Assembly (NCBI GenBank): GCA_027262695.1
Contig: GCA_027262695.1_4722.1
From: a phage
Strand: one strand, 5' to 3'
Length of the DNA: 64,000 nt
The notes beneath the pieces were generated by a model. It searched no databases and had not been told where the DNA came from. It was given only the letters and a program-made list of their open reading frames with translations. The stretch's first letter is position 1. The number at the start of each line of letters is the position of its first letter. This document shows, one piece after another, positions 3,647 to 50,070 of the stretch. Both the position numbers and the translations under genes were made by a program.

Positions 3647-4124
3647 CCTGGAGTCCTCTCTTCTTCTGATGATGCCACCATCGTTGATAGATAGCTTGTT
3701 TCGTACGCATTATACCAAAATGCGCATTAACCTGTTCGGCAATGCGATACCAATCATTCGTCTCTTTCAACAACGTGTCAACGAAGATCAGAAAGGCTTC
3801 GGTATCGTCATTGGTTAACCGTTTGAAACCGTAGCGGTGCGCGGTTACCCTAAGACTGTTTGGATCTCGGTTGAGGTCACGAGCAAGCTGTTTGTAGCTC
3901 TTACGTTTACAGTTCGCCTTGATATACTCCAATTCACGATGTGTAAAACGGTTGTGTGCTTTACGACGTTCGACGTTTAAATAGCGAAGCCGTGCTTCGA
4001 CTGCACCGAACGTCGTCTCCATGATTTCCGCAATTTCGCGAATCTTTAATCGCGGTTGCCGAAAATATAGTTCTAACAACTGATTATCGGACTTACGATT
4101 CCATCGTCGTATCGTTGGTTTCAC
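3624..4124 (-). CDS. double Myb/SANT-like HTH protein, paralog 4
   Basis: Two HTH repeats; GTG start preceded by AGGAGA; C-terminal W-x-RIAEQVNAHF motif. Confidence 0.5.
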   Translation of the reverse strand: MKPTIRRWNRKSDNQLLELYFRQPRLKIREIAEIMETTFGAVEARLRYLNVERRKAHNRFTHRELEYIKANCKRKSYKQLARDLNRDPNSLRVTAHRYGFKRLTNDDTEAFLIFVDTLLKETNDWYRIAEQVNAHFGIMRTKQAIYQRWWHHQKKRGLQDGTTVAQ

Positions 4125-4137
4125 AACGAGGTTTCTC

Positions 4138-4605
4138 CTATTCTCCGCGTCTTAGTACCTGAGTGTAGTAGAGGGCATAGACACCGCTTAACGTGTAATG
4201 GGTGTTAAATTCGTTATTGATGATATTCTGTATTTTCTCCCAGGTTCTCTTCTCTTTTCTAAGCGTGTGTATTCGGTGATAAATCATCTCTCGACGTTGC
4301 GCTTTACAGGCGACAATACCGTAACGGTAGCAGAGTTTAGCGATTGCTTCTGCGCTACGATTGAACATTACGGCAGCTTCTTTTACGCTATGTGTCTTGA
4401 GATAATCGGCTAACATCACGCGTTCATCAAAACAGCAGTAGCGATGACGTGACGCGAGTTTCCAGCGCTTGCGATTGCGGTTAATTCGACCTTGAACCGA
4501 ACCTTCCGTTCTGCCAAGCCGCTCTGCAATCTCTTGCATCGGTATACCGTTTCGATACAGGGTAATCAGCATCGCATCCTCTTCAGGTGTCCAGTCCTTG
4601 ACCAT
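4138..4605 (-). CDS. double Myb/SANT-like HTH protein, paralog 5
   Basis: WTPEEDAMLITLY...EIAERLGRTEGSVQGRINRNRKRW is a canonical Myb-repeat pattern; GAGG RBS. Confidence 0.6.
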   Translation of the reverse strand: MVKDWTPEEDAMLITLYRNGIPMQEIAERLGRTEGSVQGRINRNRKRWKLASRHRYCCFDERVMLADYLKTHSVKEAAVMFNRSAEAIAKLCYRYGIVACKAQRREMIYHRIHTLRKEKRTWEKIQNIINNEFNTHYTLSGVYALYYTQVLRRGE

Positions 4606-4615
4606 CGTATCTACC

Positions 4616-7414
<2,799 letters not shown>

Positions 7415-7461
7415 TAAAAGGTTTCCTCCATACGAAACCAAAAAGTTGTCAAAACGTACAT

Positions 7462-7504
7462 CGGCATAACGCCTGTGTCCACCCATGTTGGGAGGGACAC
7501 AGGC
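7462..7504 (-). terminator. GC hairpin followed by GTTATGCCG box
   Basis: Minus strand GCCTGTGTCC...GGACACAGGC GTTATGCCGATG. Confidence 0.5.
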
Positions 7505-7512
7505 GAATCACC

Positions 7513-8145
7513 TTACGATTTCACAACACATTCGACTTCGTCGTTCATGTACGCGTCGTATAAAGACAAGACTTCTTTCATTTTGATTTCAGGTAACGCA
7601 ACGGAACGTATCGCTTTCAAGATGTTCCGCGTTTGATGATGTTTTGCTGTGGCCTCACGTGCTTTACAGAACCGACGGATACAGGTATTAACTTTACCGC
7701 CTTCAGCACGTTCGAGAGCAACATGCAGCTTCAAATCAAGCAATACATCGGTAAGTTCCTGAGTAGCCGGATCGTTACGAATGAGTCGTACGGTATGTTC
7801 ATCAGGATTCAGCATCGTGAGGAACTGAAGTTTGATGTGCTCTGGTACCGGTTTCGTGTTCACCATGATGGCATCAAGCTGTTCTTTAACGTCCAACTCG
7901 TTGAACACATAACGTTCGACGTGTACAACATGTGCTTTTCCTGATTCACCGTAAATCGCCATCGCACGATAATCATCAAACAACACGACGTACATCAGAT
8001 CTTGTTCTGGTCCTAGGGTACCATCGATGAGTTTCGGGGCATGTTTCTTGAAGAAACCGTAACGAACAGCTTCATCCGGCTGGAGCGTCCACGCATTAAC
8101 AGGCTGTTTTACGAGTTCCATGTAACACCTCATCAAGATCATCAC
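7513..8145 (-). CDS. hypothetical protein
   Basis: 210-aa ORF, same strand, tight spacing. Confidence 0.5.
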   Translation of the reverse strand: MMILMRCYMELVKQPVNAWTLQPDEAVRYGFFKKHAPKLIDGTLGPEQDLMYVVLFDDYRAMAIYGESGKAHVVHVERYVFNELDVKEQLDAIMVNTKPVPEHIKLQFLTMLNPDEHTVRLIRNDPATQELTDVLLDLKLHVALERAEGGKVNTCIRRFCKAREATAKHHQTRNILKAIRSVALPEIKMKEVLSLYDAYMNDEVECVVKS

Positions 8146-8410
8146 TTACACCAGACGGCACAACCACACCAGTACGAATCACTGCTGCGATTTCCTGCAT
8201 CGCTTTGCCTTTCAACGCAAAGGTTTCGTATACAACAGCACGTCGGGTTGTTAAACCCACAAACTTACAGACGACCATGTTGTCTTCTGAAAGATAAGCG
8301 GTTTCCAATTCACCATGTAACAGTTCTTTTTCTCGAGTATCAATGCCCATTAAGGCAATTTGATAGGCAGATAGTTTCCAATAACGCATATTCATCCTAC
8401 TTGTAAACAA
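8096..8410 (-). CDS. hypothetical protein
   Basis: 104-aa ORF; start uncertain (overlaps downstream gene by 50 nt). Confidence 0.4.
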   Translation of the reverse strand: MFTSRMNMRYWKLSAYQIALMGIDTREKELLHGELETAYLSEDNMVVCKFVGLTTRRAVVYETFALKGKAMQEIAAVIRTGVVVPSGVSDDLDEVLHGTRKTAC

Positions 8411-9223
8411 TCAAATATTCCGAAACCGAGTTCCTCGTTTCTACTTTAGCCGAGATCATTCTCCTTACCGTAATCGGATGAAATTCTGATGCGGTACTAT
8501 AGATTTCTTCAACCAATGGGCACGTACTATTACTGATTACGGTAGGGATACCCTGCCTACGAAGTTTGTCGGCCGTTTCTGCAAGGTATCGGTGGTCATC
8601 CAACGTGAATCCTTCCTTGGTATAACCTGTAAAAGAGGCTGTGGTCGAAATAGGGATATACGGCGGGTCGCAATATACGACATCGCCCGATCTCACGTTT
8701 TCGAGGTGTCGTCTAAACCCACCACGTACAATTTCCACCCCCCCCCCCTCTCGACGGTGGTACGAAGATGGTTAGCAGCCGCCCGTAATTCGTATTTCGG
8801 ACAATAGATCGTCTTGTATCGTCCGTGTGCGACGTTAAATAATCCGTTTTGGTTATAGCGACACAAACCATTGAATCCGTAACGGTTCAGGTATATGAAA
8901 CACACCGCACGTTCCCAAGGATCGTTGCTTTGATTAAAACGGTCGCGCACCTCGTAATAACGTTTAACGTCTTCCGGCGCAATTTGGAATAAACGTTCAA
9001 CACCCTCAATGAATTGTTTCGGACATGTCACCAACGCTCTCCAAACATTAAGGATATCCTCGTTAGCATCCCCAATGGAATAACTAGGATATTTCAGTGA
9101 AAGCGTCACCGCACCAGAGCCGACGAACGGTTCAACCAAACGCTTTCCATCCGGCAACACATTCCTAATTTCAGGGATAAGTTTGGTTTTGTTACCCAAC
9201 CATTTAAGAAACGTTTTATTCAT
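8397..9223 (-). pseudogene. dam: Dam-family DNA N6-adenine methyltransferase, interrupted by frameshift in poly-G tract
   Basis: N-part has FLKWLGNK, LVEPFVGSGAV, FIYLNRYGFNGLCRYN; C-part has catalytic VVYCDPPY; the two frames meet at an 11-G run. Confidence 0.75.
8738..8748 (-). repeat. homopolymeric G11 tract (C11 on plus strand) inside dam
   Basis: 11 consecutive C on plus strand at 8738-8748; 12 G would restore a single dam reading frame. Confidence 0.9.
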
Positions 9224-9644
9224 CGAGAGACCCCTGCGACCCGATGAACTCGATGCTTATTTCCGTTCGAATCGGGTTGATAAGAATTTCACGTACACGC
9301 TCCAACCATTCGGGATTATCCGTCAGAACAACATCGGCGTATTTCAACGGTGTATGTTCGAACGTATCGGTTGTGCTTACCATCAATACACCGTTAAGTT
9401 CTACGTACAGCGGTATACGTCCACGAATACGTTGCCATGTGTCATGGGTCAGATCTTCGCATTCAAGCGCAATCGCGATGATGGGGCTGATGTTAAGTGG
9501 GAAGCTAGGATGCAACGTGCGGCGAAAGGTCACCCAGTTCTCAACATGAGAAACCGCAAGTTCTATCGAACAACATTTTGGTGGTATCTGAATATGAATT
9601 TGTTGGACAAGTTTATTGGGGTTTTGTACAGACTTATCGGCCAT
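9216..9644 (-). CDS. hypothetical protein
   Basis: 142-aa ORF. Confidence 0.4.
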   Translation of the reverse strand: MADKSVQNPNKLVQQIHIQIPPKCCSIELAVSHVENWVTFRRTLHPSFPLNISPIIAIALECEDLTHDTWQRIRGRIPLYVELNGVLMVSTTDTFEHTPLKYADVVLTDNPEWLERVREILINPIRTEISIEFIGSQGSLDE

Positions 9645-10613
9645 TTACTTTTTCCTGAAAATCAGCGTCGGTAATCCATTTCTTACAGCGTAGTATAACA
9701 CCAATAAGTTAATCTTACCGGCCGATACCGTCAGGGTCTTCTTACGACGCGGTAAACTGATCGGGATCTCGGTGGCGATTTCGCTGACGTTATGGAACGA
9801 TTGAGCATATCGACGCAGTGACGCTTCACCGAGGATCGGTAAGAAGAGATCTTCAGTAAAGGTACTATCGCAAATATACTGGATGTTAATAAGCGGGGGA
9901 TTAAACTCATCCAGGAAATCGAAGAGTTCATCAACGATTTTCAACAGGTTCGCGGGTAATGGAACTTCACGAACATATTTCTGATTCCCTTTCTCAAGTA
10001 GAATCATCGTCATGCAGTAATCCTGGATGATATCAACAACGTCTTGCTGGGTGGTTGCCGCATTTAACAACGTGCAGGCTTCCGACCAGGAGAGTTGTCG
10101 GCGTGTCTCGTAGTAAGACGGTTGTAATACCGCGTAGAACTCACGGAGTAAACGACCAACATCACCACGGGTACGTATCGCTAACTCAACAGCATAACCT
10201 GTCTTTTCAGCATCGCTCAGAATGTCGTTACGCCACAAAACGTAATCGTCAAGCATGCTGCGGTATTTCTCGGTCCAATCAGATGAAAGATAATAACCGA
10301 TTTCTTCAATAAGGACATTTACCTTACCGCCCAATGCCTCGCGACGAGGATCGACCGAAGGCTCGAATGTAAACGGTAATTTAGGTATGCCGAAACCATC
10401 AGCCACGATAACGTCGCTAAGGAAGGTCCCTAATGGCGACCAAGGACCCAGAAGATCCTGATACAGCATGGGGTGCATGCTATTAATCAAGGTGAATCGA
10501 TCATCAAAGAAACGAACGCTTGGGTGCTCGGCGAGCGCAAGTTCCGCGTAGACTTTCTCAAGCTGTATTTTTATTGCGTCCCGTGTTTTATCGATAGGGC
10601 CTATAGAAGCCAT
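9645..10613 (-). CDS. hypothetical protein
   Basis: 322-aa ORF, no recognised motif. Confidence 0.55.
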   Translation of the reverse strand: MASIGPIDKTRDAIKIQLEKVYAELALAEHPSVRFFDDRFTLINSMHPMLYQDLLGPWSPLGTFLSDVIVADGFGIPKLPFTFEPSVDPRREALGGKVNVLIEEIGYYLSSDWTEKYRSMLDDYVLWRNDILSDAEKTGYAVELAIRTRGDVGRLLREFYAVLQPSYYETRRQLSWSEACTLLNAATTQQDVVDIIQDYCMTMILLEKGNQKYVREVPLPANLLKIVDELFDFLDEFNPPLINIQYICDSTFTEDLFLPILGEASLRRYAQSFHNVSEIATEIPISLPRRKKTLTVSAGKINLLVLYYAVRNGLPTLIFRKK

Positions 10614-15787: not shown

Positions 15788-16084
15788 TTATACCGCTACT
15801 TGTGCTTTAATAGCAGGGTGTGATTGATATCCGACGAACACGAAGTCTTCGTAACGGTAATCCGTGATACTCTCTGGTTTCCGCACAATTTTCAGTTTTG
15901 GTAACGGATACGGCTCACGACTAAGTTGTTCTTTAACCTGTTCGAAGTGGTTATGGTAGATGTGACAATCTCCACCTGTCCACACGAACTCCCCAACGTC
16001 CATATTCAGCTGTTGGGCGATCATGTGTGTCAACAGCGAATATGATGCGATGTTGAACGGAACACCTAAAAATACGTCAGCACT
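15788..16084 (-). CDS. thyA: thymidylate synthase, exon 2
   Basis: [25 protein letters not shown]...[10 protein letters not shown] matches ThyA C-terminal region. Confidence 0.85.
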
Positions 16085-17191
16085 CATTCTGTTCAGATAA
16101 GGTCGTTAGTCTTATCCCGTTATGTTAACCGCTGTAGATTATCTCTACAGTTCGGACTATATCACGATCTCCTTCCCTGGAGACCCCTCCCGTTTCACAC
16201 CCACTTGGGCGTTACGCTACTCATCACTATTTTCATTCATCCGTTTAGTGCTTTCGCTAGTCTCTGGGCATTCTTCTACAAGTCTGTACGATTCAAATTT
16301 GGGATTTTTACTGCCTAATCGATAAAGTATCGTTGCCGGAACAACGCCTAACTGCCGAGCCGCTTCAGTTAGAGAGACGTACTCGATTCCATCGATTTCC
16401 ACTTTACGTGCGTTAAGTGGAATATTCCCTCTATTCCTTTCGGCGATGAGACGGCGCGTTTCTTCGCTATGATGTCGACCATAGAACGGATTCCTTTCTC
16501 CGGTTCTGGTTTTCGCAAACTCCGACATCTTTCGACGTGTTTCGTCACTGACTTTTACCCCTAAACGTCTCGCTCTGGATGCAGCAATATTCTCAGGAGT
16601 ACACACTTTTTGTCGAATGAGTTCACGTGTTTCAGGCGTATGTGTTCGACCATACATCCCGTTACGTTCACCGGGTTTTCCGTACACTATACGACGCTCC
16701 TCTGCTGTTAAGGATGCGTTTCTTTTGTTAACAGCATAAGCTATCTTATCGATTATTTTGTCACGGTCTGGGTTTCTGGTGAGGTTGTCTCCGCCTACGA
16801 CACCCAACCCAATATTAAGCAAAGCTTCATTCGGTAGACAGTCAATGAACTTCTGCTCTAAAGCATATGCTTCTTCACGAGAAGCGCATTCATCGACCGT
16901 AACCGAGATAAAGCAGCCCTTATTATAGGCATTTTGTAATCGACTGTTTCGATGAACACCGCGACGCAAATTCGATTTGTGATCCACTAAGCGTTGCTTT
17001 AAATTGTTGGTACTACCAACATAGACATCACCATCTTGGGTACATAACCGATATACTACTGGTTTTTTCATACTGCCTCCTTTATAAGAGAGACAGACAT
17101 GTAGAAGGTTAGCAACGGATTAGCCCGTAGGCTTTCCCGTTTTAAGGAGGTTATTCGACGTAGCTCACGCTACGAAGGCGCAGTTGCATTT
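16085..17191 (-). mobile_element. group I intron (td-type) in thyA
   Basis: Minus-strand P-like AAAACGGGAAAGCC (17143-17130), R-like CAGAGACTAGCG (16266-16257), S-like GATATAGTCCG (16164-16154); exon 1 ends CGT, IGS GCGC; ORF after QR is read-through (KCNCAFVA). Confidence 0.75.
16217..17071 (-). CDS. GIY-YIG homing endonuclease (intron-encoded)
   Basis: N-terminal VYRLCTQDGDVYVGSTNNLKQRLVDH (GIY-YIG), repeated RNGMYGRTHTPETR / RNPFYGRHHSEETR NUMOD-like motifs; AAAGGAGG RBS. Confidence 0.8.
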   Translation of the reverse strand: MKKPVVYRLCTQDGDVYVGSTNNLKQRLVDHKSNLRRGVHRNSRLQNAYNKGCFISVTVDECASREEAYALEQKFIDCLPNEALLNIGLGVVGGDNLTRNPDRDKIIDKIAYAVNKRNASLTAEERRIVYGKPGERNGMYGRTHTPETRELIRQKVCTPENIAASRARRLGVKVSDETRRKMSEFAKTRTGERNPFYGRHHSEETRRLIAERNRGNIPLNARKVEIDGIEYVSLTEAARQLGVVPATILYRLGSKNPKFESYRLVEECPETSESTKRMNENSDE

Positions 17192-17914
17192 ACGCTGATA
17201 AAGCTGACACGACAGTGCGCGCGTAGGTACGTTATGCGCATTCAACCAGAGTTCGGTTTCGCTCTGTTTAACGTCGTCAGTAACCCATCGTGCCCTTAGC
17301 GCATCGTTACGGTGGACGTAATAAACACGTTCGTCGATGGTGAGCTCGTGAGTGTAGAACTGATAGAAACTATGGCATGCGGGAAGCGCCATATCGTCTA
17401 AATCGCCTACGTTCCATGCACTAACGATAATCCGCCGAGAATCAGGATCTTCTTTGAGTTGACGCATCACGTTTGCAATTTGGTCATGGTGTTTAACATA
17501 CAAGAGATGTTTGACCATACCGTCGTTAACAATACCGCAATACTCATAACCACGTTGCATCAAAGTACGGGTACGTTCTGTATCATGCGGAACAACCACT
17601 TTGTAGTCAATCCATTCTCGCCATTGTCTGCCGTAAATCGGTCCTAGATTCCCTTCCTTATCAGCCCACTCATTCCAGATGCGAACACCATTATCCTGAA
17701 GATAAGCAACGTTTGTGTCGCCGTTAAGAAACCAGAGCAGTTCGTGGATAACGCTCTTAAGGTGAATCTTCTTAGTGGTTACCAGCGGGAATCCTTTCTT
17801 CAAGTCAAAACGCATTTGACGCCCGAATACCGAACGGGTACCGGTACCTGTACGATCGGCCTTATCGCGACCGTTATCCATGATGTCTTGCAAAAGGTCC
17901 AAATACTGTTTCAT
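17192..17914 (-). CDS. thyA: thymidylate synthase, exon 1
   Basis: [61 protein letters not shown] match ThyA. Confidence 0.85.
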
Positions 17915-31996: not shown

Positions 31997-33451
31997 ATGA
32001 AAATCAAACAAAGCTGGAAAGACGAATTACTTGCATTAGTTAACAGCAAAAACAGTTTACAACTGACATTAGACGACGTAAAGTTTGAATTAACCGAACC
32101 GGTAAGCGAAGTGCCCGGAACGGTCGTTGTTACAATCAAACCGAACGATAATAGTCGCTACTTTAACGAGCAGTCTCTGACCTACGTCCGTCGAGACATT
32201 GCTAAAAACTTCACCGGGATTCCGTTACGGGTTATCGTTAAGCAAGATACCGCTGTAAGGGATATCATCAATACGATTGCTGAACGTTACGGATTGGTAT
32301 TTGACACAACCGTCGACTTCCTCGAATCAGAGCTGAATAAACAAATTACTTTCGCAGACACCGGTATTAAAGACGTTACTGTTCCGGTTGCAAACACGTC
32401 TTATGTTTGGGCTGGTAATCTTCAGTTCAATATTGCGAACGATACGTTAAGCTTGATTACTATCATCAAGAAAACCAATCTTACGAATCTGGTTTATCTG
32501 GATGGTGTTGAAGCTGACACATCGGGGTCGTTACTGTTAGCCACCACAGCACTTGTTAACGATAGCGTAAATAAGCCGATGGTTGAAAACGAAGATATCG
32601 TCGATGAATTCTACAACGTTCTTAATGCTCTAGCCAAATATGGTGACATAACTGGCGATGAATTAAATGCCGCCTTACATGCGTACGATGCAGCAGAAAA
32701 CAGGAATAAAACCACGGTAATAACTCTTGGTGATATCCAGTGTGTTGCAACAGAAAAAGACGATTGGGAAATTGGACGTTTACGCGGTCAGATGGTTCTC
32801 GCGCTCAAATCCGATAAACAACCTGAGCGCGAGAACACGTTAAGGTTGTTTACGAATGGCGGTGACGTCTCACTAACGTTAAACACAATGAAAGATATCA
32901 GTATCGATTGGGGTGATGGGAATAAAGTAACGTTGGATGCTGAAGAAAGATACGCGCACCACACATACGCCGACAATAACCAGTACCAAATCGAAATTGT
33001 GTCTCGTACGGACCCAGATGTGCTGCGACCAAATTATATTTCTGGGAGTGAGATAACCGAAGTAATTCACTGGGCTACTACTTCAACAATAGCTCTGAAT
33101 TTTGTTGGATGCGATAATTTAGCGACTGTTCCAGATGAGATCCCAACTTCGTGGACAACGTTGGACAGCATGTTTGAAAGTTGTACGAATTTGAATGATC
33201 CGTCTATCTCTAACTGGAATACAAGTAACATCACATCAATGAATGGTATGTTCGGCGGATGCACTAAATTTAACCAACCTTTAGCTGCCTGGGATGTCAG
33301 CTCAGTAACTGACATTGGTGGTATGTTTGTCGGATGTGACAGTTTTAACCAAGATTTAAGTGGGTGGCGATTACCGTCAGGAGTAAACCACACCAATTAC
33401 GATGATGGTGCTTTCTCGTGGCAGACGGAACATAAACCGACATTCCAGTAA
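31997..33451 (+). CDS. DUF285/BspA-like repeat protein
   Basis: C-terminal repeats FESCTNLNDPSISNWNTSNITSMNGMF / GGCTKFNQPLAAWDVSSVTDIGGMF / VGCDSFNQDLSGW. Confidence 0.6.
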   Translation: MKIKQSWKDELLALVNSKNSLQLTLDDVKFELTEPVSEVPGTVVVTIKPNDNSRYFNEQSLTYVRRDIAKNFTGIPLRVIVKQDTAVRDIINTIAERYGLVFDTTVDFLESELNKQITFADTGIKDVTVPVANTSYVWAGNLQFNIANDTLSLITIIKKTNLTNLVYLDGVEADTSGSLLLATTALVNDSVNKPMVENEDIVDEFYNVLNALAKYGDITGDELNAALHAYDAAENRNKTTVITLGDIQCVATEKDDWEIGRLRGQMVLALKSDKQPERENTLRLFTNGGDVSLTLNTMKDISIDWGDGNKVTLDAEERYAHHTYADNNQYQIEIVSRTDPDVLRPNYISGSEITEVIHWATTSTIALNFVGCDNLATVPDEIPTSWTTLDSMFESCTNLNDPSISNWNTSNITSMNGMFGGCTKFNQPLAAWDVSSVTDIGGMFVGCDSFNQDLSGWRLPSGVNHTNYDDGAFSWQTEHKPTFQ

Positions 33452-33470
33452 AAAAAAATAGTTAGCATAA

Positions 33471-33503
33471 CTTCCTCCCTACCCATAACGGGCGGGGAGG
33501 AAG
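33471..33503. terminator. bidirectional terminator hairpin between convergent genes
   Basis: CTTCCTCCC...GGGAGGAAG flanked by A9 run (33451-33459) and GTTTATG. Confidence 0.6.
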
Positions 33504-49281: not shown

Positions 49282-50070
49282 TCAACGAAACATGTCTAAC
49301 AGAAAACGTTTCGCAAACGGGTCTCGTAATTGGTTAACGCCGAAGCGGGTACGGTCTTCCGTGGTTAACGGATTCCATTGACTTTGTTTCGCAAGGTCTA
49401 ATAACATCCTTTTTACTTTCACCGGTCCGCTATTGAACTGTACCGCTTGGTCACCGAACGTACCCAGGGTCATTTTCGTAAAGGGGAGGTTCGCAACCTC
49501 TGGACGATCACCCCCCGTCAGTTTGGTTGACCATTGATGTTTTCGTTTCAAAGTTCCGGTATGGCTCTCTACCAAAATAAGTTCACCAAAACCGGTTCTT
49601 GCTAACAGGTCAGAAACATAATGGGTGGTGATATACGACGTCTTGGTTATCGTGGGTAATTTACAATCCATTGATTCGATATTCGGAAACTTCTCTACCG
49701 ACGATAGCAACCCATGGTAAAGTGCTGCAAGCCCTTTTTGTTTTTCGGTATGCGGCTCCTTGTGTATGGCATGCGGATAAACACGCTTGATCGATGCGTA
49801 GGTTGGCGCATAAATCCGTAAACGAATATGCGGGATAACTTCGTTAGCCAGTTGTCGTAATTGCATCAGTTCGTTATGGAAATCGCCGTCAATCATTGAC
49901 ACCGGTAATCGGTGCTGCTCAACATCCTCGTAGCTTTCAACGAAGTTACGTGCTAACGTACGCAGGTTAAAAAGCCAATCCATCGGCGTCTCCGGCTGTT
50001 GCTGTATTGCCGTGAGTGTTACCGACGTCCCTACCGATAACGGATAATCACCTAACGAGCGGGTGTACAT
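49282..50070 (-). CDS. hypothetical protein
   Basis: 262-aa ORF. Confidence 0.5.
   Translation of the reverse strand: MYTRSLGDYPLSVGTSVTLTAIQQQPETPMDWLFNLRTLARNFVESYEDVEQHRLPVSMIDGDFHNELMQLRQLANEVIPHIRLRIYAPTYASIKRVYPHAIHKEPHTEKQKGLAALYHGLLSSVEKFPNIESMDCKLPTITKTSYITTHYVSDLLARTGFGELILVESHTGTLKRKHQWSTKLTGGDRPEVANLPFTKMTLGTFGDQAVQFNSGPVKVKRMLLDLAKQSQWNPLTTEDRTRFGVNQLRDPFAKRFLLDMFR

Follow-up and report, generated by a model that had tools for sequence, protein, structure and literature searches.

The locus considered here raises a simple question: why is a DNA adenine methyltransferase (dam) gene of a phage interrupted by a run of 11 guanines, and is this gene decaying, misassembled, recoded or switched off? 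The DNA analyzed, hereinafter the window, is the whole stretch of 64 kb, which corresponds to ABJYRE010000004.1:32021-96020, within a 248,053-bp contig of the assembly GCA_027262755.1; this assembly bears the label E. coli O157. Over 19.2 kb, the window matches both ABJYRE010000004.1 and the Logan assembly of SRR22857735 with 100% identity. Judged by sequence comparison, the window is a contig of a Goslar-like nucleus-forming jumbo phage: its NAD-dependent ligase shows 79% DNA identity to that of Escherichia phage Goslar (a nucleus-forming jumbo phage, Goslarvirus), and the gene orders of the window and Goslar are colinear. The guanine tract is probably a hypermutable contingency (phase-variation) locus in an accessory dam of Goslar-like jumbo phages, with the window representing an OFF variant.

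The earlier note had described, from the letters and the open reading frames, an 11-G run that splits dam so that the N-terminal part and the part with the catalytic DPPY lie in different frames; both observations hold (Table 1). A search against Pfam shows that the 176-aa ORF covers positions 1-157 of PF02086 (D12 N6-adenine MTase) and that the 113-codon frame, whose initial GTG takes the last G of the tract, covers positions 169-251. The single intact frame that an active enzyme requires is missing from the window dam, which is frameshifted at G11, and is present in the sister alleles G9 and G12. The further claim that 12 guanines would give one continuous protein is borne out as well: an in silico addition of one G (G12) yields a 275-aa product, ...TTVERGGGVEIVRGGF...DPPY, and the removal of two (G9) yields a continuous protein of 274 aa. 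The window allele, GAGA+G11, is accordingly one G short of the ON length G12 and two Gs over the ON length G9, both of which occur in nature.

Table 1. The dam locus and its immediate neighbors in the 64-kb window
Feature	Position	Strand	Remark
Poly-G tract (C11 on the plus strand, G11 on the coding strand)	8738..8748	-	proposed hypermutable site; length out of frame (OFF)
GAGA directly 5' of the tract on the coding strand	8749..8752	-	
Whole dam gene, frameshift-interrupted; predicted orphan N6-adenine DNA methyltransferase of the Dam family	8397..9223	-	PF02086 on both halves
N-terminal ORF, 176 aa: Dam residues 1-162 plus a 14-aa out-of-frame tail WKLYVVGLDDTSKT	8693..9223	-	
C-terminal frame, 113 codons	8397..8738	-	contains DPPY; reaches the natural stop intact
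AdoMet motif I (FxGxG), EPFVGSGAV	9107-9133		in the N-terminal part, as is the target-recognition region
Catalytic motif IV, DPPY	8658-8669		in the C-terminal part
Upstream neighbor, 142 aa, Goslar gp125-like	9216..9644	-	8-nt overlap with the start of dam; the segment present or absent among relatives has its left edge here
Downstream neighbor, 97 aa, Goslar gp124-like	8096..8389	-	7 nt past the dam stop; right edge of the dam cassette

The protein encoded by the intact allele is a member of the Dam family (D12 class, alpha-group). An in-frame allele of 274 aa that is 99% identical to the window Dam (P0001) scores 257.4 bits against the NCBIfam profile TIGR00571, "dam", for which the cutoff is 114.85; taken separately, the N-terminal part from the window scores 162 bits and the C-terminal part 90 bits, the latter on profile positions 159-266. 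The alignment of the same allele with E. coli Dam (2g1p, 4gol; E = 3e-62) runs over the full length, and the order of motifs matches. At the positions that, following the literature on 2g1p, we take to be the DNA contacts of E. coli Dam (K9, Y119, N120, L122, R124, P134 and Y138), the alignment shows conservation of K9, N120, L122, R124 and Y138, along with replacement of Y119 by F and of P134 by A. The score against NF008152, the E. coli Dam equivalog, is 256 bits, under the 441-bit cutoff. GATC is the likely target of the Goslar-like phage Dam, and the window contains 292 potential substrate sites of this kind. The observed/expected ratio of GATC is 0.66 in the window versus 0.64 in Goslar, which lacks dam, so that GATC depletion is uninformative with respect to the use of the enzyme. 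Among the closest known enzymes, E. coli Dam (2g1p, 4gol) and the orphan phage enzyme T4 Dam (1yfj) share FxGxG and DPPY with the window Dam and most of the DNA-contact positions are kept, and the Dam proteins of the Vibrio jumbo phages pVa-21 and pVp-JHP1101 are about 41% identical to it. Compared with E. coli Dam, the window Dam contains an additional, clade-specific insertion of 7 residues that holds the glycine (poly-G) tract.

The run is exceptional in its own genome. No other G/C homopolymer in the 64-kb window reaches 7 nucleotides, and an 11-mer C or G run is found in none of 100 dinucleotide-preserving shuffles of the window. Besides the dam tract, the window has a single C6/G6 hexamer (C6 at 49511-49516), against about 10 expected from the shuffles, a scarcity that would fit selection in this genome against runs prone to slippage. 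Contingency loci are taken here to be homopolymers or short repeats within an ORF or promoter, of 7-8 or more units in the case of G/C, and the G11 run, located inside an ORF, is of that kind. The A at position 8749 breaks what is an uninterrupted G13 in a close relative (L091/L104, the same contig); the window allele equals this G13 in total length and differs from it by one G-to-A change.

Comparative evidence comes from the relatives. The exact protein sequences of the two genes flanking dam retrieve 17 loci whose identity to the window is 98.9% or higher; one of them (L114) stops short of dam and another (L110) has no dam gene. Seven forms of the tract are represented. Three of these are in frame, namely GAGA+G9 (L082, L098 and L099), GAGA+G12 (SRR22857591, that is, L106/L112, and SRR28154381) and GA+G11 (L103 and L113); the other four are out of frame, namely GAGA+G11 (the window and SRR27716070), GA+G10 (L107), GA+G12 (L100 and L102) and GA+G13 (L104). 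In total, the gene is in frame at 7 places and out of frame at 6. In the alignments of these relatives to the window, indels are confined to the tract. The closest case is SRR22857591, which shows zero mismatches to the window over 3029 and 2894 nt (about 4.1 kb in all) apart from the 12th G, and its dam product is the predicted 275-aa fusion, residue for residue.

The same variability is apparent at the protein level. A G14 allele is represented by the sequence EGGGGEIV (P0131), identical N-terminal haplotypes of 153 aa are followed by up to five different tails side by side, and the cluster listings contain full-length Dams next to many truncated ones that end just past the glycine tract. 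ON and OFF alleles interchange among near-identical genomes, which differ by 0-5 substitutions per 3 kb, and this implies frequent movement in both directions. In a more distant clade, with 77% identity to the window Dam, G11 is in frame (EGGGV, ON, in L088 and L094) and the OFF alleles end in the tails EGGGGRNCK..*, EGGG* and EGGGG*. Several lineages of this clade carry interrupted, stabilized tracts with GGA codons or the sequences EGEGV and EGRGV, and a +1 shift is found there even in an interrupted G6AG5 tract, in two runs. The on/off switching that the earlier note listed as one option therefore gains comparative support at the level of reading frames.

The locus from SRR27716070 (L097/L108), aligned with window positions 3988-9936, is a mosaic, 100% identical to the window from about 7550 to 9700, with the G11 OFF allele included, 93-95% identical across the ligase gene and 63-73% identical in patches beyond. 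This pattern indicates recent recombination between Goslar-like strains.

The same comparisons bear on the possibility that the true tract is in frame (G12, for example) and that the G11 reading stems from a homopolymer miscall. Illumina sequencing tends to make errors in long G runs, short-read chemistry struggles with long poly-G, and the sister run SRR22857591, from the same batch, reads G12. Several gene calls or contigs (P0153, P0154, P0155, P0146, P0147 and P0166) stop at or near the tract or have garbled tails, such as EGRGWGG, EGVGG and EGKGGG, and in one 243,103-bp contig, a partial dam halts 5 codons upstream of the tract. Assemblers seem to break or err at this site, as expected with heterogeneous or low-quality reads, and the partial gene calls hint at local assembly trouble or heteroplasmy. 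Given the susceptibility of G runs to such errors and the calls that end at the tract, a minority of the alleles could be technical. For the window allele itself, however, a miscall is improbable: the exact 176-aa product (P0121) is encoded on six contigs, among them GCA_027262755.1 and those of another two NCBI protein records (NCBI annotates this protein in three records named "E. coli O157"), and G11 is recovered as well from SRR22857735 as assembled independently by Logan and from the SRR27716070 mosaic. Moreover, other tract alleles recur in more than one sample, the assemblies differ by no other indel, and a frameshift is found also in the short G6AG5 tract, where miscalls are rare. The assembly error suggested as another option in the earlier note is accordingly unlikely.

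If the alleles are real, the gene might still be a mere relic. The dam gene is an accessory component of the genome. In Goslar, 35 bp between the gp124 and gp125 homologs (Goslar L001 11321-11355) take the place of window positions 8393-9249, so that dam can be described as an accessory cassette in a tightly packed array of minus-strand genes. The close relative L110 (SRR17646485), which is without dam (window 8411-9232 versus L110 1268-1279), has flanks that are 97.9-99.6% identical to those of the window and keeps the final 13 nt of the gene (TGTTTACAAGTAG), which looks like a deletion rather than a never-inserted state. Where the Goslar-like Dam family is present, a protein search finds its members to be 75-99% identical and to have the same two neighbors every time, on contigs of about 240-249 kb.

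A megablast search of the dam region finds no match in the collections of deposited phages, plasmids and complete E. coli genomes; tblastn of Dam against deposited phages detects only relatives with at most 41% identity, and a protein-pattern scan of IMG/VR only those with at most 43%. DNA-pattern scans of genome_contigs and viral_contigs give no match, and the scan of metagenomes finds four loci only. Near-complete Goslar-like genomes (about 237-249 kb) are found within NCBI isolate assemblies labelled E. coli O157, Salmonella enterica and Shigella flexneri, in the contigs behind P0121, P0123, P0136 and P0149-P0155, and none of these is in the deposited phage collection. The presence of such contigs in clinical and food isolates suggests carrier-state or pseudolysogenic persistence of virulent jumbo phages, or contamination.

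The main alternative to an adaptive switch is that the tract is merely a mutational hot spot in a pseudogene that is being lost, so that the switching is not adaptive; the mechanism at the DNA level is common to both readings. The absence of dam from Goslar and L110 is compatible with such decay, as is the share of OFF alleles, which make up about half or more of those with a pure tract. With the ON share near one half, the distribution does not clearly depart from what neutral drift of a dispensable gene would produce. Other lesions do occur, if rarely: P0164 has lost 18 aa by deletion and P0167 has a second frameshift. The +1 shift in the two runs with the G6AG5 tract points in the same direction. 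A precedent for decay is provided by Enterobacteria phage phi80 (JX871397, 26521-27310), in which "damL", 40% identical to the window Dam, is annotated as a frameshift-disrupted DNA adenine methylase pseudogene.

The pattern of selection nevertheless argues against simple decay. When the window clade is compared with the 77% clade, synonymous divergence has reached saturation (pS about 0.75). In the C-terminal half of the protein, pN is 0.11-0.12 with pS of 0.72-0.83; the pN of the N-terminal half is 0.16-0.18. For both halves, dN/dS is about 0.03-0.08 between the clades and 0.08-0.26 within the 77% clade. Since the C-terminal half is translated only in ON alleles and yet is under strong purifying selection, the full-length Dam has been subject to such selection in the long term. 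In addition, the 113-codon C-terminal frames of the OFF alleles are intact and free of further lesions, ON and OFF states alternate at the minimal distances given above, and a run made of a rare codon (see below) outlasts the saturation of synonymous divergence. Taken together, these observations make neutral decay unlikely. They indicate a gene that is functional when ON and a switch that, to judge from the distribution of ON and OFF states, would be reversible. Because interrupted tracts, the dam-less genomes and the P0164 and P0167 lesions show that both the homopolymer and the gene can be dispensed with, dam is suggested to be useful but conditionally dispensable, which would be the very setting where contingency loci are expected.

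The requirements of the protein do not explain the tract. GGG is the rarest glycine codon in the window (14.9%), and the hexamer GGGGGG is found at none of the approximately 57 other Gly-Gly sites in the window, but the poly-G run is kept across the clades despite the saturated synonymous divergence. The tract sits in the 7-residue insertion, which is restricted to the Goslar-like clade, being absent from all 33 of the nearest Dam homologs outside this clade and from E. coli Dam. The natural G9 allele was modelled with AlphaFold (pLDDT 88.3, pTM 0.88); in this structure, the tract forms a two-residue turn that joins the helix 143-159 and the strand 162-165; such a location suggests that the observed 2-4 glycines would be tolerated.

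The same region is relevant to the idea that the two ORFs are translated apart, with initiation at the GTG at 8738 and the G run as a Shine-Dalgarno mimic, and that the products assemble into a two-chain Dam. Split methyltransferases are known in principle, the GTG does follow a G-rich sequence, and the 113-aa ORF is annotated by NCBI. However, the junction codon in the 77% clade is GTA, which is not a start codon, the break would, according to the model, interrupt the tight turn that links a helix to a core beta-strand, and in-frame, single-chain alleles are common. A split enzyme is scarcely credible under these circumstances, and the idea was dropped given that the start codon at the junction is not conserved.

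Another reading takes G11 to be the designed state, with the full-length Dam made by RNA polymerase slippage on C11 or by -1 ribosomal frameshifting. RNA polymerases are known to slip on homopolymers of 9 or more nucleotides, and a G run permits perfect re-pairing of tRNA-Gly in the -1 frame. A degree of leaky rescue of OFF alleles, through slippage of the phage's own RNA polymerases or of the ribosome, is plausible. As a programmed event, such recoding is very unlikely because the out-of-frame layout lacks conservation: some relatives are in frame and others have a +1 or a -1 shift, which is incompatible with any single recoding event, and the -1 alleles of the 77% clade stop at once (EGGG*). 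In the systems where recoding of this type is established, such as Thermus dnaX (A9), Shigella mxiE and IS transposases, a homopolymer likewise lies where two overlapping frames of one protein meet, but the out-of-frame layout is fixed and conserved, whereas at the dam locus the DNA length itself varies and many relatives are in frame. The 131 nt around and downstream of the tract show no RNA structure beyond that of shuffled sequences (MFE of -42.8 versus a mean of -42.6 kcal/mol, z = -0.06). A frameshift stimulator was therefore rejected, the RNA at and 3' of the tract folding no better than shuffles. Slippage-dependent expression, the remaining option of the earlier note, is thus unsupported.

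The preferred reading, a contingency locus, implies the following chain of events. During phage replication, the polymerase would slip on the G:C homopolymer (slipped-strand mispairing) and change its length by one or more nucleotides in either direction, bringing the catalytic C-terminal half with DPPY into or out of frame. Tracts of 9 or 12 Gs after GAGA, and of 11 or 14 Gs after GA, are predicted to encode the full-length Dam, and all other lengths a protein truncated ahead of DPPY. The outcome would be heritable, reversible ON/OFF variation of a presumably GATC-specific Dam-type methyltransferase among sibling phages. Slippage is the presumed cause of the observed variation in tract length, and a fitness benefit of switching may likewise be postulated.

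The lifestyle of these phages could make the switch more consequential. Host factors are described as excluded by the phage nucleus in the account given in PMC9365700. If so, host mismatch repair and host Dam may miss the replicating genome; the tract would then be very unstable, with a switching rate presumably raised by the exclusion of mismatch repair, and the phage gene would be the sole determinant of GATC methylation in the virion. A more ambitious and tentative version of this scheme, which we consider possible although doubtful, is that the tract has evolved for bet-hedging, as a means by which a nucleus-forming phage switches its epigenetic state. Under this version, the protein shell in which Chimallivirus DNA replicates keeps host enzymes out, so that the DNA may never encounter host Dam, and a phase-variable phage Dam alone would set the GATC methylation of virion DNA. 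Every burst would then consist of methylated and unmethylated genomes and, as a mixture, could evade both methylation-sensitive and methylation-dependent nucleases, and without host mismatch repair in the shell, the switch would be unusually fast.

Contingency loci are already known in phages, and phase-variable methyltransferases are known as well; the dam locus joins the two in a nucleus-forming jumbo coliphage. Among phages, homopolymers in T2 agt and T4 rIIA have been characterized as contingency loci (Gomez, Barrick & Waters, bioRxiv 10.1101/2025.10.21.683753), and poly-G tracts have been described in the receptor-binding proteins of Campylobacter Fletchervirus phages (Sorensen et al. 2021, as cited in 10.1101/2025.10.21.683753). 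In Bordetella phage BPP-1, a poly-G run in a methylase gene was remarked upon without further study, according to the same preprint (Liu et al. 2004, as cited in 10.1101/2025.10.21.683753). What these T2, T4 and Fletchervirus systems have in common with the proposed dam switch is a homopolymer within a phage ORF, slippage, reversible frameshifts, mixed progeny and a gene that bears on the phage-host arms race; the Fletchervirus tracts (7-11 G) are also of similar length. The dam locus differs from them in that the gene encodes a Dam-type methyltransferase of a nucleus-forming jumbo coliphage and in that it is known comparatively, from natural alleles. BPP-1 likewise carries a poly-G run within a DNA methylase gene of its own, but the methylase is a different one, and the phage, temperate and podovirus-like, infects Bordetella.

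On the bacterial side, the counterparts are the phasevarions, exemplified by the Type III mod genes of Haemophilus, Neisseria, Helicobacter and Moraxella. Here, too, a simple-sequence repeat resides in a methyltransferase ORF, and it toggles expression and genome-wide methylation. The phasevarion genes, however, are chromosomal restriction-modification genes of bacteria with many such loci, in contrast to the orphan Type II-like Dam of a virulent phage. A phase-variable methyltransferase with a poly-G tract is the Type IIG enzyme cj0031 of C. jejuni (PMC4889913).

If the proposed switch is correct, dam would be a clear natural contingency locus of a coliphage, represented by many wild alleles rather than laboratory mutants, and the first such locus both in a nucleus-forming jumbo phage and in a Dam-type methyltransferase. 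The G11 and G12 sister phages in public samples provide a simple genetic handle, with which one can ask whether methylation is relevant under a protein nucleus, whether host Dam has access to the DNA there and how unstable homopolymers are in that compartment. There is also a consequence for annotation: pipelines split this gene into two "Dam" proteins or call it partial, and the tract length should be reported as a variable feature instead of being corrected or dismissed.

Two other features of the window merit mention. The longest A/T homopolymer is an A9 run (33450-33458, plus strand) that starts inside the TAA stop of a 484-aa DUF7941/DUF285 gene (31997-33451) and is followed by a terminator-like, GC-rich inverted repeat (cctccc...gggagg, approximately 33474-33501); the exact protein adjoining this run is carried by the same strain only. 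The second feature is a thymidylate synthase gene, thyA (15788-17914, minus strand), that is split by a GIY-YIG/NUMOD3 ORF, with the N-terminal part at 17165-17914, the ORF at 16217-17071 and the C-terminal part at 15788-16087; by annotation, the Goslar counterpart, gp141, is a single thyA of 1020 nt. An Rfam search detects sub-threshold matches to group I introns on the flanks of the ORF (17072-17141 and 16132-16425; 17 bits, E about 0.2), and the insertion is probably a td-like mobile group I intron, with a putative homing-endonuclease ORF.
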